Shown here in pieces: positions 1-5,101 of a stretch of DNA of 5,101 nucleotides (the stretch's first letter is position 1; each line of letters starts with the position of its first letter). The DNA is from a virus. Taxonomy: Duplodnaviria; Heunggongvirae; Uroviricota; Caudoviricetes. The stretch is taken from IMG/VR virus record IMGVR_UViG_2534681604_000007; one strand, written 5' to 3'. The notes beneath the pieces were generated by a model, which did no database searches, was not told where the DNA came from, and saw nothing but the letters and a program-made list of their open reading frames with translations. The translations under genes and the position numbers were made by a program.

Positions 1-1074
1 TCATTTGTCGATTTCAATTTTGTCCCATTCCCGTCCACGGCTGTCCCTATACCGCGCCGCCATTGAATCTGATTTATGCCCGAGAAGACGTTGAGCAAAC
101 TTATCGCCAATCTGGTTCCGGTATAGCCTCGCCGACAGGCTACGCAGTTCATGGAATGTTGGCGGGTCTCCATCAAATGAGAGTCCAGATGCATTTCTCG
201 CCTTTGTAAAATACTTCGATACTGTTTTCGGGGAAAGTGGTTCGTGATGCGTTGATGCAATTATTGTTTCACTGCCGCTGGCCTTCCTGCATTTCTGTAG
301 TGTATCAGCCAATGAGATATTGAGCGCGTCAATCCTTAGCGTCAGCGGAATGGCGAGCTTAGCCCCTGTTTTACCCTGTTCAATGTGAAGATGGTTGTCG
401 TTTATGTCTGACCATTTCATTCTGCACAAATCGCCGACTCTCTGCCCTGTAACGACAGCCAAATCCATCGCCAGTCTTAGCCAGATTGGGAGAGGTTCGG
501 CTGCATGGTAAATCTCGACATACTCATTAGCTGTCAGCCTTGAGCGCCTTACTTCTGACTTTGCTGTGCGGGTTGCTGTTACCGGATTCGTTGCTACATG
601 CCCCTCGGCTATTGCCTCACGAAAAACGTCAACAAGGGTTGACCTGATTAATTTTGCGGAAGCCGCTTTACCTTCTGCTACGTAGGTGTTTAGCATTGCT
701 GCCACCTCTTTCGTTGATATGTCAGCGAGCGGTTTGTCCGGCAATTTTCTTCGGATTGCCCTGATTTTGCTGGCGTAGTCGAGTAGAGTTTTCGGCCTGA
801 TACCCCTCTCGCTGAGGATTGTTTCATATCGGTCAAGCCACGCATGAAGAGTGATTACGTCAGCGCCTTTAATTCTGTCTATCAGTGACTCACGCCTGTT
901 CTCGGATAGTAACTCAATATTGGCCTGAATAGCCTCTGAAACTGCTATCCTTCTGTCTCTGCCTAATCCGAACTCTTTACCCGTCCTTGGGTCTCTGTAG
1001 CAGTAATATCCATTGTTTCTTATATAAAGGTTAGGGGGTAAATCCCGGCGCTCATGACTTCGCCTTCTTCCCAT
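1..1074 (-). CDS. int: Lambda-family tyrosine site-specific integrase (356 aa)
   Basis: Translation starts MGRRRSHERRDLPPNLYIRNNGYYCYRDPRTGKEFGLGRDRR, as I recall for the lambda Int arm-binding N-terminus. Catalytic residues are present in the expected contexts: R in GQRVGDL, K in EQGKTG, H..R in FHELRSLSARLY, H in LLGHKSD, Tyr in AARYRD. ATG at 1074..1072 lies inside xis, as in lambda; TGA at 3..1. Confidence 0.96.
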   Translation of the reverse strand: MGRRRSHERRDLPPNLYIRNNGYYCYRDPRTGKEFGLGRDRRIAVSEAIQANIELLSENRRESLIDRIKGADVITLHAWLDRYETILSERGIRPKTLLDYASKIRAIRRKLPDKPLADISTKEVAAMLNTYVAEGKAASAKLIRSTLVDVFREAIAEGHVATNPVTATRTAKSEVRRSRLTANEYVEIYHAAEPLPIWLRLAMDLAVVTGQRVGDLCRMKWSDINDNHLHIEQGKTGAKLAIPLTLRIDALNISLADTLQKCRKASGSETIIASTHHEPLSPKTVSKYFTKARNASGLSFDGDPPTFHELRSLSARLYRNQIGDKFAQRLLGHKSDSMAARYRDSRGREWDKIEIDK

Positions 1075-1270
1075 TTCTGATCCTCTTCAAAAGACTACCT
1101 GTTACTGGTCGATTTAAGTCAACCTTTACCGCTGATTCGTGGAACAGATACTCTCTTCCATCCTTAACCGGAGGAGGGAATATCCTGCATTCGCGCACCC
1201 ATCGACGAACTGTTTCAAGGCTTCTTGGGCGTCGCTGGCGTGCGTTCCACTCCTGAAGTGTCAAGTACAT
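1052..1270 (-). CDS. xis: Excisionase Xis (72 aa)
   Basis: Translation MYLTLQEWNARQRRPRSLETVRRWVRECRIFPPPVKDGREYLFHESAVKVDLNRPVTG..KRIRNGKKAKS matches lambda Xis as I recall it. Its 3' end overlaps the int start by 23 nt. GGAG lies about 9 nt upstream of the ATG at 1270..1268. Confidence 0.95.
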   Translation of the reverse strand: MYLTLQEWNARQRRPRSLETVRRWVRECRIFPPPVKDGREYLFHESAVKVDLNRPVTGSLLKRIRNGKKAKS

Positions 1271-1360: not shown

Positions 1361-1672
1361 TTATTCGATGCGCACTCCTGGTATTTCGCCTTTTGATATT
1401 GCTAAGTCATAAATTTGTGCAGCACTATACCCATCTCGCATCCATGAATCTAAGGCGCGAACAGCCTCGCTACGTTTTTTATTCTCCCTCTCATTTTTGA
1501 TATCAACGAGGACATCAACGCAATTAAGGCAAATGTGGATTTTGTCCTTACATTCGATCATGGCGGCTTTACCATGATTTCCACCACACAGTGAGCATAA
1601 ATCTTCAGGGTCTAGCTGGTATTTCTGTAACGTTAGAGGGTTGAATGTTGAACAGACCATAATCATCTCCAT
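1361..1672 (-). CDS. Hypothetical C4 zinc-ribbon protein (103 aa); sits where lambda carries ea8.5, but homology was not verified
   Basis: Intact 103-codon ORF in operon orientation, TAA at 1363..1361. Cys pairs CSLC ... CLNC plus an extra Cys in IECK suggest a zinc ribbon. Three in-frame ATGs at codons 1, 3 and 5 (MEMIMV) leave the true start ambiguous. Confidence 0.65.
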   Translation of the reverse strand: MEMIMVCSTFNPLTLQKYQLDPEDLCSLCGGNHGKAAMIECKDKIHICLNCVDVLVDIKNERENKKRSEAVRALDSWMRDGYSAAQIYDLAISKGEIPGVRIE

Positions 1673-1697
1673 AAAACAAAACTCGCCGTAGCGAGTT
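1673..1697 (-). terminator. Candidate intrinsic terminator abutting the start of the zinc-ribbon gene
   Basis: Minus strand: AACTCGC-TACG-GCGAGTT followed by TTGTTTT, then directly ATG. 7-bp perfect stem, 4-nt loop, U-rich tail. Confidence 0.45.
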
Positions 1698-1731
1698 CAG
1701 ATAAAAGAAATCCCCGCGAGTGCGAGGATTG

Positions 1732-2016
1732 TTATTCATTGCTGATATTCACCTTTATCGCGAACACCTTTACCGGTTTATCGCCAAAGTGCGGATGTGT
1801 GATTGTCTTCACTTCATATCCGTCATACGGAACATCAATTCTGCGACTGGAATCGTCGCGCTTCGGATATCCCTTTGTGATAATCAGGCGGTTATACTTA
1901 CGGTTAACGAGGCGCTTTTTCCAGTAGTCATTACACAGGCGATACTCTTCCGTTTTCTCTCCGCGAATCATGGCATCGAAGTATTCACTTTTCACAGCAA
2001 GTTGCAGGTTAGCCAT
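1732..2016 (-). CDS. ASCH-like (PUA-fold) domain protein, 94 aa from the ATG
   Basis: ORF MANLQLAVKSEYFDAMIRGEKTEEYRLCNDYWKKRL...; the RGEKTEEYR segment fits the ASCH GxKxxExR signature. GGGGGA lies 7 nt upstream of the ATG at 2016..2014; an in-frame GTG at 2019..2017 is a less likely start. The ATG shares one nucleotide with the TGA of the upstream TraR-like gene (TGATG). Confidence 0.7.
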   Translation of the reverse strand: MANLQLAVKSEYFDAMIRGEKTEEYRLCNDYWKKRLVNRKYNRLIITKGYPKRDDSSRRIDVPYDGYEVKTITHPHFGDKPVKVFAIKVNISNE

Positions 2017-2237
2017 CACTTAATCCCCCTTTGTTTGCGGATAAGCTCCAGATCTTGCTGGCAACTTGCACAAGTCCGACAACCCTGAATGGCCAGTCGT
2101 CTTCGTTCATCTATCGAATCGCCACACTCACAACAATGAGTGGCAGATACAGCCTGGTGGTTCAGGCGGCGCATTTTTATTGCTGTGTTGCGTTGTAATT
2201 CTTCTATTTCTGATGCTGAATCAATGATGTCTGCCAT
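2016..2237 (-). CDS. TraR/DksA-family C4 zinc-finger protein (73 aa), likely an RNA polymerase secondary-channel binder; same size as lambda Orf73
   Basis: Translation MADIIDSASEIEELQRNTAIKMRRLNHQAVSATHCCECGDSIDERRRLAIQGCRTCASCQQDLELIRKQRGIK has an N-terminal acidic helix and CxxC...CxxC spacing typical of TraR (F plasmid) and lambda Orf73. ATG at 2237..2235, TGA at 2018..2016. Confidence 0.85.
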   Translation of the reverse strand: MADIIDSASEIEELQRNTAIKMRRLNHQAVSATHCCECGDSIDERRRLAIQGCRTCASCQQDLELIRKQRGIK

Positions 2238-2290
2238 CTTCCATTAATCCCTGAATTGTTGGTTAATACGCTTGAGGGTGAATGCGAACA

Positions 2291-2313
2291 ATAAAAAAGG
2301 AGCCTGTAGCTCC
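2291..2313 (-). terminator. Candidate intrinsic terminator between the 71-aa ORF and the TraR-like gene
   Basis: Minus strand: GGAGC-TACAG-GCTCC followed by TTTTTTATT. Short 5-bp stem but a strong U-tract. Confidence 0.4.
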
Positions 2314-2335
2314 ATGATGATTTTGTTTTTCATGC

Positions 2336-2551
2336 TCACCGTTCCTTAAAGACGCCGTTTAACATGCCGATCGCCAGGCTTAAATGAGTCGGTGTGAATC
2401 CCATCATCGTTACTGTTTCGTGGTGCTTCTTCAGTACGCTACGGCAAATGTCATCGACGTTTTTATCCGGACACTGCTGTCTGGCTTTTTTGATTTCAGA
2501 ATTAGCCTGACGGGCAATGCTGCGAAGGGTGTTTTCCTGCTGAGGTGTCAT
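2336..2551 (-). CDS. Hypothetical protein (71 aa from ATG at 2551)
   Basis: ORF MTPQQENTLRSIARQANSEIKKARQQCPDKNVDDICRSVLKKHHETVTMMGFTPTHLSLAIGMLNGVFKER. Its ATG overlaps the TGA of the 27-codon small ORF (ATGA). The track's longer 104-aa version starts at a TTG. Weak SD (GGGG about 10 nt upstream), so coupling is probably needed. Confidence 0.5.
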   Translation of the reverse strand: MTPQQENTLRSIARQANSEIKKARQQCPDKNVDDICRSVLKKHHETVTMMGFTPTHLSLAIGMLNGVFKER

Positions 2552-2631
2552 TGAACAAGCCCCATGTCGGCAAGCATAAGCACGCAGAATATGAAGCCCG
2601 CTGCCAGAAAAATGCATTCCGTGGTTGTCAT
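2548..2631 (-). CDS. Unlisted 27-codon small ORF encoding a hydrophobic, probably single-pass membrane peptide (MTTTECIFLAAGFIFCVLMLADMGLVQ)
   Basis: Hand translation of the minus strand: GGAGG-CTGC-ATG at 2631..2629, followed by 26 sense codons and TGA at 2550..2548. The ATG overlaps the methyltransferase TGA (ATGA) and its TGA overlaps the ATG of the 71-aa ORF (ATGA). Codons are common E. coli ones (CTG, GCG, GGC, TTC, GCC, GAC). Below the ORF-track length cutoff. Confidence 0.45.
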   Translation of the reverse strand: MTTTECIFLAAGFIFCVLMLADMGLVQ

Positions 2632-3185
2632 GCAGCCTCCCGACGGGCAAGAATCCTTGAGCCGAACGCCATCAACTCGCCACGATCAACGGTCGTAAAG
2701 TGGCAGTGTGTACGGGGGTATGGGTGCCAGATAATGAGCATCGAGCCTTTATTATTTCCACTGACGGGTTTCCCGGTGAGTGGGTTAATAAATGCCAGTC
2801 GTCCTGCCGTGATGAATCTGACCTCACTGGCGGTTTGTATCGCTTCATGAAACCATCCGACAGATGTGTCAGCAGGCAATAACATTACACATCCCACACT
2901 ACTGAATTTGTTTTCAGTGGCTGCCTTTTTCACAAAAGGGGAAATATTGCTGTATGGTGGATTCAACCAGACATAACCAGAGGCATATCCCATTGCTTCA
3001 GGCCATGAAGTGGTTAATGTGTTCTGCTCCTGTGAGATAAAAAGCCGACATAGTCGGTTTTTTTCGTTGGCTGCAGCATCAAGTTGAAAATCGAACTCTG
3101 CATTCAGCGCAGCAAAAATCTCTGGTGGTGTGCGCCAGCTGTCGCGATGTTCGGCAGGAGTATTGCTTCCGGTGAAATCAGTCAT
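2628..3185 (-). CDS. Phage Dam-family (T1-type) DNA N6-adenine methyltransferase, 185 aa
   Basis: Translation contains the catalytic NPPY tetrapeptide (VWLNPPYSN) and the N-terminal WRTPPEIFAALNAEFDFQLDAAAN segment characteristic of the small phage Dam family. GGGGGG lies 4 nt upstream of the ATG at 3185..3183; TGA at 2630..2628. Confidence 0.88.
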   Translation of the reverse strand: MTDFTGSNTPAEHRDSWRTPPEIFAALNAEFDFQLDAAANEKNRLCRLFISQEQNTLTTSWPEAMGYASGYVWLNPPYSNISPFVKKAATENKFSSVGCVMLLPADTSVGWFHEAIQTASEVRFITAGRLAFINPLTGKPVSGNNKGSMLIIWHPYPRTHCHFTTVDRGELMAFGSRILARREAA

Positions 3186-3336
3186 ACAGCCCCCCGTTTA
3201 TTATTTATCTCCTCAGCCAGCCGCTGTGCTTTCAGTGGATTTCTGATAACAGAAAGGCCGGGAAATACCCAGCCTCGCTTTGTAACGGAGTAGACGAAAG
3301 TGATTGCGCCTACCCGGATATTATCGTGAGGATGCG

Positions 3337-4017
3337 TCATCGCCATTGCTCCCCAAATACAAAACCAATTTCAGCCAGTGCCTCGTCCATTTTTTCGATG
3401 AACTCCGGCACCATCTCGTCAAAACTCGCCATGTACTTTTCATTCCGCTCAATCACGACATAATGCAGGCCTTCACGCTTCATGCGCGGGTCATAGTTGG
3501 CAAAGTACCAGGCATCTTTTCGCGTCACCCACATGCTGTACTGCACCTGGGCCATGTAAGCCGACTTTATGGCCTCGAAACCACCGAGCCGGAACTTCAT
3601 GAAATCCCGGGAGGTAAACGGGCATTTCAGTTCAAGGCCGTTGCCGTCACTGCATAAACCATCGGGAGAGCAGGCGGTGCGCATACTTTCGTCGCGATAG
3701 ATGATCGGGGATTCAGTAACATTCACGCCGGAAGTGAACTCAAAGAGGGCTCTGGCGTCGTTCTCGTACTGTTTTCCCCAGGCCAGCGCCTTAGCGTTAA
3801 CTTCCGGAGCCACACCGGTGCAAACCTCGGCAAGCAGGGTGTGGAAGTAGGACATTTTCATGTCAGGCCATTTCTTTCCGGAGCGGGGTTTTGCTATCAC
3901 ATTGTGAACCTCTGAAGCGGTGATGACGCCGAGCCGTAATTTGTGCCACGCATCATCCCCCTGTTCGACAGCTCTCACGTCGATCCCGGTACGCTGCAGG
4001 ATAATGTCCGGTGTCAT
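3337..4017 (-). CDS. exo: Lambda exonuclease (Red-alpha), 226 aa
   Basis: Translation [65 protein letters not shown]...GEQWR matches lambda Exo as I recall it. ATG overlaps the bet stop (ATGA at 4017..4014). Confidence 0.97.
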
Positions 4018-4799
4018 GCTGCCACCTTCTGCTCAGTGGCTTTCTGTTTCAGGAATCCAAGAGCTTTCACTGCTTCGGCCTGTGTCAGTTCTGACGATGC
4101 TCGAATGTCGCGGCGAAATATCTGGGAACAGAGCGGCAATAAGTCGTCATCCCATGTTTTATCCAGGGCAATCAGCAGAGTGTTAATCTCCTGCATGGTT
4201 TCATCGTTAACCGGAGTGATGTCGCGTTCCGGCTGACGTTCTGCAGTGTATGCGGTATTTTCGACAATGCGCTCGGCTTCATCCTTGTCATAGATACCAG
4301 CAAATCCGAAGGCGAGACGGGCACACTGAATCATGGCTTTATGCCGTAACATCCGTTTGGGATGCGACTGCCACGGCCCCGTGATTTCTCTGCCTTCGCG
4401 GGTTTTGAATGGTTCGCGGCGGCATTCATCCATCCACTCGGTAACGCAGATCGGATGATTGCGGTCCTTGCGGTAAATCCGGCATGTGCAGGATTCATTG
4501 TCCTGCTCAAAGTCCATGCCATCAAACTGCTGGTTTTCATTGATGATACGGGACCAGCCATCAACGCCCACCACCGGAACGATGCCGTTCTGCTTGTCAG
4601 GGAAGGCGTAAATTTCTTTCGTCCACGGATTAAGGCCGTACTGGTTGGCGACGATCAGCAATGCGATGAACTGCGCATCGCTGGCATCACCTTTAAATGC
4701 CGTCTGGCGAAGAGTGGTGATCAGTTCCTGTGGGTCGACAGAATCCATGCCGACGCGTTCAGCCAGCTTCCCAGCCAGCGTTGCGAGTGCTGTACTCAT
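4014..4799 (-). CDS. bet: Single-strand annealing protein Bet (Red-beta), 261 aa
   Basis: Translation [85 protein letters not shown]... matches lambda Bet as I recall it. ATG at 4799..4797 follows the gam TAA (4807..4805) by 5 nt. Confidence 0.97.
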
Positions 4800-4804
4800 C
4801 CGTT

Positions 4805-5101
4805 TTATACCTCTGAATCAATATCAACCTGGTGGTGAGCAATGGTTTCAACCATGTACCGGATGTGTTCTGCCATGCGCTCCTGAAACTCAACATCGTC
4901 ATCAAACGCACGGGTAATGGCTTTTTTGCTGGCCCCGTGGCGTTGTAAATGATCGATGCAGAGTGATTCAAACAGGTGCTGGGGCAGACCTTTTTCCATG
5001 TCGTCTGCCAGTTCTGCCTCTTTCTCTTCACGGGCGATCTGCTGGTAGTGACGCGTCCAGCTCTGAGCCTCAAGACGATCCTGAATGTAATAAGCGTTCA
5101 T
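4805..5101 (-). CDS. gam: Gam, RecBCD inhibitor; 5' end truncated by the window edge (visible part is the 98-aa GamS-equivalent portion)
   Basis: Translation [95 protein letters not shown] matches the C-terminal 98 residues of lambda Gam as I recall it. The reading frame stays open to the last base of the window. Confidence 0.92.

Follow-up and report, generated by a model that had tools for sequence, protein, structure and literature searches.

A phage Dam gene in the leftward arm of a lambdoid prophage

The window analyzed here is a 5,101-nucleotide stretch of a tailed-phage sequence (IMG/VR record IMGVR_UViG_2534681604_000007), and the gene of interest encodes a small N6-adenine DNA methyltransferase of the phage Dam family (Table 1). 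An earlier note, made from the letters alone, had placed a T1-type Dam-family adenine methyltransferase here, and its coordinates proved exact. The profile search that it proposed was positive: Pfam PF05869 'Dam' aligns positions 1-168 of its 169 with residues 6-177 of the window protein (expectation value E 8.8e-57), and the score of 191.9 bits against a curated cutoff of 28.1 makes this a full-length family match. The NCBIfam equivalog TIGR01712 'phage_N6A_met' scores 168 bits against a cutoff of 97.05 (profile positions 3-165 of 165), and among the PHROGs the protein matches phrog_111 'DNA methyltransferase' (E 2.8e-78). On these three scores the family match is far above chance.

The open reading frame (ORF) is thus a real, intact and previously annotated T1/VT2-type phage Dam gene (the type names refer to the enzymes of phage T1 and of VT2-Sakai), and it is not new. 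The exact protein sequence is present in NCBI (CAQ90224.1, EGC08479.1 and others) as 'MULTISPECIES: phage N-6-adenine-methyltransferase [Escherichia]', an E. fergusonii entry names it 'DNA N-6-adenine-methyltransferase from phage origin', and its 90%-identity cluster has 537 member sequences. RefSeq annotation of the same gene is present in E. coli genomes. The phage Dam family has been known biochemically since the work on T1 Dam in the 1980s.

Table 1. Features of the window (aa, amino acids; nt, nucleotide; CDS, coding sequence)
Feature	Position	Strand	Basis or remark
int	1-1074	-	gene order in window
xis	1052-1270	-	gene order in window
function-unknown gene, 103 aa	1361-1672	-	phrog_3680
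function-unknown gene, 95 aa	1732-2019	-	phrog_625
orf73 homologue, TraR/DksA-type zinc-finger protein	2016..2237	-	PF01258, E 4.6e-8; phrog_54
terminator-like hairpin, GGAGCTACAGGCTCC then TTTTTTATTG, between orf61-like gene and TraR-like orf73	2299..2313	-	hairpin scan
orf61-like gene, long form, directly downstream of Dam	2336..2617	-	93 aa from ATG 2617; phrog_303
ATGA at Dam stop codon	2628..2631	-	lambda homology resumes at orf63 stop; window 2631 = lambda 31008
Dam-family (PF05869 / TIGR01712) N6-adenine DNA methyltransferase CDS	2628..3185	-	185 aa, ATG start; ORF list and profiles
NPPY catalytic motif IV, N75-P76-P77-Y78	2952..2963	-	codons AAT CCA CCA TAC; sequence reading
'LDAAA', L35-D36-A37-A38-A39, at first beta-strand (residues 33-37)	3069..3083	-	alignment and model
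'W-x-T-P' signature, W17-R18-T19-P20, N-terminal	3126..3137	-	W17, T19, P20 invariant in clade, T1 Dam and VT2 Dam
ATGA overlap, orf60a stop / Dam start	3182..3185	-	sequence; lambda homology ends at this ATG
orf60a homologue (DUF1317), directly upstream, co-transcribed	3182..3340	-	PF07026, E 7.4e-35; 97.6% nt identity to lambda
Shine-Dalgarno region AAACGGGGGGCTGT, inherited from lambda orf63 (lambda: AAACGAGGGGCTGT)	3186..3199	-	lambda alignment
exo (lambda exonuclease, YqaJ family)	3337..4017	-	PF09588; 97.6% nt identity to lambda
bet (RecT-family annealase)	4014..4799	-	PF03837
gam (host nuclease inhibitor)	4805..5101	-	ORF; PF06064 in identical locus L013

Several other methyltransferases were considered as relatives and set aside. 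The 'DNA adenine methyltransferase' of a Stx prophage, shown to be a 16S rRNA methyltransferase (PMC10810198), belongs to the MT-A70 family (M.EcoPA8orf6770P), with a DPPW motif and a partner subunit, in contrast to the NPPY and the PF05869 match of the window protein. The non-specific adenine methyltransferases Hia5 and Hin1523 carry DPPY with FxGxG and form another subfamily. None of the marks of the MT-A70, Hia5 or M.EcoGII types (DPPW, or DPPY with FxGxG, and the corresponding profile) was found in the window protein, which has NPPY and matches PF05869 only. M.EcoMIV, the silent prophage 'Dam homologue' of ST131, is a PF02086 protein and so of a different family. M.EcoGV, found on Stx2 prophages, is probably irrelevant here; no Stx phage in the phage collection carries the window gene at the nucleotide level.

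Conserved motifs, fold and selection

Conservation was read from an alignment of 62 homologues that are 66-98% identical to the window protein. The NPPY motif, which the earlier note had picked out, is invariant among them and stands in register with T1 Dam and VT2 Dam. Residues that are invariant or nearly so comprise W17-x-T19-P20, D36-x-A38-A39, N75-P76-P77-Y78-S79, M101-L102...D106...W111-F112, G128-R129-x-x-F132 and N144-x-K146-G147 of the GNNKG segment, nearly all of which T1 Dam and VT2 Dam share. D36, A38 and A39 are invariant, and the 'LDAAA' segment that contains them is the probable equivalent of motif I, which binds S-adenosylmethionine (AdoMet).

An AlphaFold2 model made from the alignment (mean predicted local distance difference test score, pLDDT, 86; predicted template modeling score, pTM, 0.84) has a Rossmann-type core of alternating strands and helices, the fold of class I AdoMet-dependent methyltransferases. 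NPPY immediately follows the beta-strand at residues 71-74, and the modeled fold is nearest to N6-adenine methyltransferases. Searches of the PDB with the window protein, by sequence and by profile, found nothing meaningful, and the family is therefore one without a close solved structure.

The ratio of nonsynonymous to synonymous substitution (dN/dS) against close alleles is 0.22-0.25. Against the Klebsiella and Rahnella homologues the proportion of nonsynonymous differences (pN) is 0.18-0.23, with synonymous sites saturated at 0.79-0.95. The low dN/dS, together with a low pN beside saturated synonymous sites, points to clear purifying selection on the window gene.

Exact replacement of lambda orf63

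Comparison of the window with phage lambda by blastn gave two blocks around the Dam gene, one joining window 3183-5101 to lambda 31194-33112 (97.6% identity) and the other window 2026-2631 to lambda 30402-31008 (95.2% identity). Lambda orf63, a DUF1382 gene, spans lambda 31005-31196. Since the edges of the blocks match the limits of orf63, the Dam ORF replaces orf63 precisely, from start codon to stop codon. On the upstream side the two sequences agree across the Shine-Dalgarno region, AAACG[G/A]GGGGCTGT, up to and including the ATG, and from the next base on they are unrelated. With both junctions shared, the Dam cassette inherits the transcription and translation signals of orf63, and translation of Dam is probably coupled to that of orf60a via the ATGA overlap.

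The exo-xis set of lambda consists of orf60a, orf63, orf61, orf73 and ea22. By position the Dam gene falls within this set, lying between exo and xis on the pL strand with flanks that are 95-98% identical to lambda at the nucleotide level. It has no homology to the canonical exo-xis proteins, however; it is unrelated to orf63 (DUF1382) and diverges right after the shared ATG, and is therefore a replacement cassette rather than a conserved member of the set. Lambda orf63 itself resembles the Dam gene in position, in upstream sequence including the Shine-Dalgarno region and ATG, and in the downstream junction at the stop codon, which places the two in the same transcription unit; it differs in its product, an unrelated DUF1382 protein of 63 aa to which the literature assigns a pro-lytic developmental role. 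No methyltransferase gene is mentioned for the region in the exo-xis literature that was checked for 'methyl' terms.

The orf63 slot is a precise start-to-stop exchange site at which unrelated cassettes swap while the translation signals are kept, and it provides a clean example of lambdoid mosaicism at single-gene resolution. This variability is relevant to papers in which orf60a-orf63-orf61-orf73 is regarded as a conserved block.

Orphan status

No ORF of the window matches a restriction endonuclease, and no PADLOC defense model matches in the window apart from the methyltransferase itself, whose best match is to the 'orphan methyltransferase' models (PDLC03721, E 2.5e-32). The neighbors of Dam are all lambda-type genes or function-unknown PHROGs. 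Four prophage contexts that encode the identical protein were inspected with 10 kb of flanking DNA, in which no restriction endonuclease family was found; these flanks hold standard lambdoid genes only (cI/cro, O/P, nin, N, sieB, kil, gam, bet, exo, xis, int). Among the isolated phages of the collection, only PhiR30_1 (PV340558) has the gene at the nucleotide level, with a protein 98.4% identical to that of the window. Its complete genome, with 69 features, has no annotated restriction endonuclease, a few hypothetical proteins not having been individually examined. The earlier statement that no cognate restriction endonuclease lies in the window therefore stands, and it extends to the 10-kb flanks and to the PhiR30_1 annotation.

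Distribution and the second Dam gene of the source prophage

Complete E. coli genomes (5426) were surveyed, and slot occupants were read from evenly sampled hits. The slot flanks are present in 3633 of the 5426 genomes, with DUF1382 (orf63) as the occupant in most of the sampled hits. A full-length Dam allele was found in 244/5426 and an at least partial one in 312/5426, and Dam thus occupies the slot in about 5% of complete E. coli genomes. All the Dam copies are chromosomal, with 95-99.6% nucleotide identity. In the E. coli B lineage Dam is truncated and only its 3' part is left. One sampled genome has two hypothetical genes in the slot, and another a DGQHR-domain protein beside the DUF1317 gene.

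The window is 100% identical to GL870856.1 of assembly GCA_000190495.1 (locus L013), where it corresponds to L013:13185-8085. Immediately after ninB this source prophage carries another PF05869 gene (L013:1-505, minus strand), 9.5 kb towards the pR side. The second copy is 100% identical to the Dam of VT2-Sakai and Min27 over 168 residues and 47% identical to the window protein, and one prophage accordingly carries two diverged phage-Dam paralogues, one per early operon. The pair poses the question of redundancy versus distinct specificity. No second PF05869 copy was seen in the DNA covered for prophage L010 or in the whole of PhiR30_1, which share the exo-xis Dam; the 10-kb flank of prophage L012 ends before the nin region. 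In a Rahnella prophage the window clade itself is found at the ninB position. Given these prophages without a second copy and the Rahnella clade member at ninB, the simplest view of the pairing is that mosaic assembly filled two permissive slots as a side effect.

Recombination genes are close by in all the contexts inspected. The gene comes right after ninB in three loci, only one small gene (orf60a) separates it from exo-bet in the window, and in Klebsiella RecT or Erf lies about 1.3 kb upstream of it. This proximity may merely reflect where cassettes are tolerated. We judge it unlikely that the paralogues are non-redundant, whether because the exo-xis enzyme has a distinct or relaxed specificity or because it serves a special task alongside the Red or NinB recombination genes. 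In the latter case, fast methylation of recombination and replication intermediates could keep off MutHLS and SeqA, and homeologous recombination, hence phage mosaicism, would be favored.

Organization of the leftward operon

The window represents the leftward arm of a lambdoid prophage, with every real gene on the minus strand. With gam-bet-exo-orf60a upstream of Dam and the orf61-like gene, the TraR-like gene, xis and int downstream, all in the same orientation, this is the leftward early operon of a lambdoid phage, so that the location of Dam inside the leftward recombination operon was correctly called before. Nucleotide identity to lambda is about 98% over gam-bet-exo vs only about 77% in int and xis, with sharp mosaic boundaries. 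The two function-unknown genes between orf73 and xis (phrog_3680 and phrog_625) stand in place of lambda ea22 and ea8.5, and the only stretch among them that is close to lambda is a 74-bp island (window 1662-1735, 97% identical).

The long form of the orf61-like gene is also seen as a 104-aa ORF from TTG 2650, of which residues 12-104 match phrog_303 (E 8.8e-41; the profile has about 101 positions), and RefSeq annotates 71 aa only, from ATG 2551. The annotated orf61 of lambda (61 aa) is the same protein, shortened by a frameshift after '...SEIKK'. A hydrophobic ORF of 27 codons, MTTTECIFLAAGFIFCVLMLADMGLVQ (window 2551-2631, minus strand), uses as its start the ATG within the ATGA overlapping the Dam stop. 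Its start and the ATGA are present in lambda too, at the orf63 stop; the ORF overlaps the orf61 frame and may be fortuitous. The window hairpin at 2299-2313 corresponds to a terminator/promoter that has been predicted for the orf61-orf73 interval of lambda and phi24B (PMC4195576).

Opposite Dam, an antisense ORF (2545-2850, plus strand) matches phrog_37455, of unknown function, with E 3.7e-8 over 61 residues; most likely this PHROG gathers shadow ORFs that were wrongly called on the strand opposite Dam genes. No credible family was found for the plus-strand ORFs that overlap Dam, and nothing in the window matched Rfam.

Expression, specificity and probable role

In the source prophage the N gene lies upstream, and in lambda the same slot is about 4.3 kb from pL. 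This part of the lambda pL operon is read only after N antitermination and is delayed-early. Because Dam is downstream of N, gam, bet, exo and orf60a, we expect it to be delayed-early and N-dependent, and not immediate-early as the earlier note had supposed. The promoter scan found no sigma-70-like promoter on the minus strand anywhere in the window, so nothing here speaks for lysogen-phase 'moron' expression. The mRNAs of lambda orf60a, orf63 and orf61 reach levels similar to that of N after infection (PMC4195576).

Terminator-like hairpins are over-represented in the window as a whole (16 vs 4.9 +/- 1.9 in shuffles). Among them are a 9-bp stem in orf60a, just upstream of Dam (3276-3254, minus strand), and a weak pair inside Dam (3057-3045 and 3112-3098, minus strand). 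If real, such hairpins would increase the dependence of Dam expression on N antitermination.

As for the target site, the window protein is 45% identical to T1 Dam (M.EcoT1Dam, YP_003925.1; E 2e-40) and 47% identical to VT2/Min27 Dam (E 3e-56), and thereby closer to each than they are to one another (33%). T1 DNA from a dam- host is DpnI-sensitive, and DNA of a T1 dam deletion from the same host is MboI-sensitive (PMC10470545). PMC6602927, with reference to Radlinska & Bujnicki 2001, describes M.EcoVT2Dam as 'known to target GATC'. Since both enzymes act on GATC and the window protein lies between them, GATC is the parsimonious prediction and the likely target site of the window clade. The substrate is at hand: GATC occurs 13 times in the window and 126 times in PhiR30_1. 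The observed/expected ratio is 0.50 in the window, where GATC is the second lowest palindromic tetranucleotide after CTAG, and 0.59 in PhiR30_1, where it is the most under-represented one. Depletion of GATC has been reported for E. coli prophages (PMC4659465, PMC6602927), with which both sequences agree; the depletion is uninformative on the specificity of the enzyme.

Upon infection or induction of the prophage, and once N antitermination has taken place, the gene would be read from pL along with gam-bet-exo-orf60a and translated from the ribosome-binding site of orf63 with the coupling to orf60a described above. As a member of this family, with AdoMet and the NPPY active site, the enzyme would methylate adenine in replicating phage DNA. 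A benefit is suggested by analogy with T1, in which host Dam alone leaves the DNA only partly methylated and a dam deletion reduces the burst to about 60% of wild type even in a dam+ host (PMC10470545). By this analogy the window enzyme may complete GATC methylation where host Dam lags behind rapid phage replication. Fully methylated progeny DNA might then escape methylation-sensitive nucleases, and the action of MutH and SeqA on unmethylated or hemimethylated GATC might be avoided.

These considerations alter two further proposals of the earlier note. Early delivery was supposed to protect the genome from host nucleases, whereas an enzyme made after entry comes too late to shield the incoming, unmethylated genome and can mark only replicating and progeny DNA. 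Orphan phage methyltransferases were also described there as established anti-restriction or regulatory factors; the nearest relatives recognize GATC, the same site as host Dam, and a classical role of that kind is not the best supported, because the probable GATC specificity would duplicate the Dam of a dam+ host. Top-up methylation of fast-replicating phage DNA appears to be the better-supported role.

Taken together, we consider it probable that the gene encodes a functional orphan phage Dam, most probably specific for GATC, that has replaced orf63 exactly in its slot, depends on N for its expression and tops up the methylation of phage DNA. Several points weigh against this interpretation. 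The hosts, E. coli and E. fergusonii, are dam+, and part of the activity would duplicate that of the host. An identity of 45-47% is no guarantee of the same target site, and for members of the clade (at least 65% identical) no published specificity was found in the literature. A second GATC enzyme would look redundant, because the source prophage already has a copy identical to M.EcoVT2Dam. Finally, the closest solved structure to the model is an RNA cap m6A methyltransferase and not a DNA enzyme, although the resemblance is remote (template modeling score, TM, about 0.5-0.6).

Alternative explanations

One alternative is an active adenine methyltransferase with non-GATC or relaxed specificity, which would give progeny DNA a broader anti-restriction 'vaccination' and complement the VT2-type Dam. 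Two paralogues only 47% identical in one prophage would be unexpected if both recognized GATC, and the fusion to a C5-cytosine methyltransferase in Klebsiella and Enterobacter (see below) resembles a multi-specificity protective module. The PADLOC class of the protein is that of orphan methyltransferases, and relaxed orphan methyltransferases of phages and plasmids are known in other families (M.EcoGII, Hia5). Yet both characterized branches that flank the window clade, T1 and VT2, recognize GATC, which makes this the parsimonious ancestral state; the pairing is more likely a mosaic by-product, as no second copy was seen in the DNA covered for L010 or in PhiR30_1, and the clade can itself occupy the ninB position, as in Rahnella. 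We therefore hold a different specificity to be unlikely, if still the most serious of the alternatives. The remote match to an RNA cap methyltransferase, the top structural match, could instead suggest an RNA substrate (rRNA, tRNA or mRNA), as for certain adenine-N6 methyltransferases whose original annotation was that of a DNA enzyme. For T1 Dam, however, methylation of DNA has been demonstrated, and it is reported for M.EcoVT2Dam as well; an RNA substrate seems very improbable.

A mainly regulatory role would use the same enzymatic activity and is in that sense compatible with the top-up function. Changed GATC methylation of phage or host DNA, or the closing of the MutH/SeqA window on Red intermediates, would tune lysis-lysogeny, induction or recombination, and Dam would take over the role of orf63. 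The exo-xis genes (orf60a, orf63, orf61, orf73, ea22) modulate lysogenization and induction (PMC3824215, PMC8614690, PMC10869804), and the gene is near recombination genes in every context seen. That adjacency may just mark where early operons tolerate non-essential cassettes, and the promoter scan offers nothing for expression in a repressed lysogen. Host Dam is reportedly needed for stable 933W lysogeny, as Murphy et al. are said to have found in 2008 (a paper cited in PMC3824215), and this too would suit a regulatory role, to which we nevertheless give little weight. Least credible of all is that the gene is a decaying, non-functional passenger of a cryptic prophage. Truncated copies do exist, since the E. 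coli B lineage has a partial gene and the protein cluster contains partial proteins of 122-148 aa. The window copy, however, is full length with every invariant residue intact and shows the marks of purifying selection, and the same allele is carried by PhiR30_1, an isolated, plaque-forming phage.

Comparison with known systems

The Dam of the E. coli host (PF02086, alpha class) and T4 Dam have no detectable sequence similarity to the window protein and belong to a different family. The window protein is much smaller than host Dam, and no separate target-recognition domain is visible in it. The specificity shared by host Dam and T1 Dam is convergent, as has been noted for T1 (PMC10470545).

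Lambdoid prophages of Klebsiella and Enterobacter have a related gene in the equivalent place, between the recombination module and TraR/xis/int, in the form of a C5-cytosine methyltransferase::Dam fusion, whereas the window gene is stand-alone. An uninterrupted 637-aa ORF in a Klebsiella prophage (L008:3690-5603, plus strand) combines an N-terminal C5-cytosine methyltransferase (PF00145, E 5e-36) with a C-terminal PF05869 domain (E 2e-57), the Dam homologue, which shares 74% identity with the window protein; the same arrangement is found in L009. The joint PF00145 and PF05869 matches of P0052, P0060, P0067, P0068, P0071 and P0087 are explained by this fusion. Gene callers annotated only the last 200 aa of the Klebsiella fusion and left 1.3 kb empty. 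Since the fusion is split in this way, the '200-aa phage Dam' entries for Klebsiella in the databases are probably truncated.

M.EcoVT2Dam (orf32 of VT2-Sakai, identical in Min27 and many Stx phages) is a PF05869/TIGR01712 protein of similar length, 175 vs 185 aa, and shares NPPYS, W-x-TP, LD(A/S)AA and GN(N/S)KG with the window protein, the 47% identity of the two extending along their entire length. Its gene is likewise an orphan in an early operon of a lambdoid phage and adjoins a recombination gene, but it follows ninB in the rightward nin region, while the window gene is in the exo-xis region. T1 Dam, the founder of the family, is also an orphan phage enzyme with the same motifs, and the 45% identity extends across the catalytic core. 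It is longer (237 aa), its N-terminus being extended by 45 aa and a further 14 aa being inserted ahead of the GR(L)xF motif, and it comes from a virulent phage (Drexlerviridae), whereas the window gene comes from a temperate lambdoid one.

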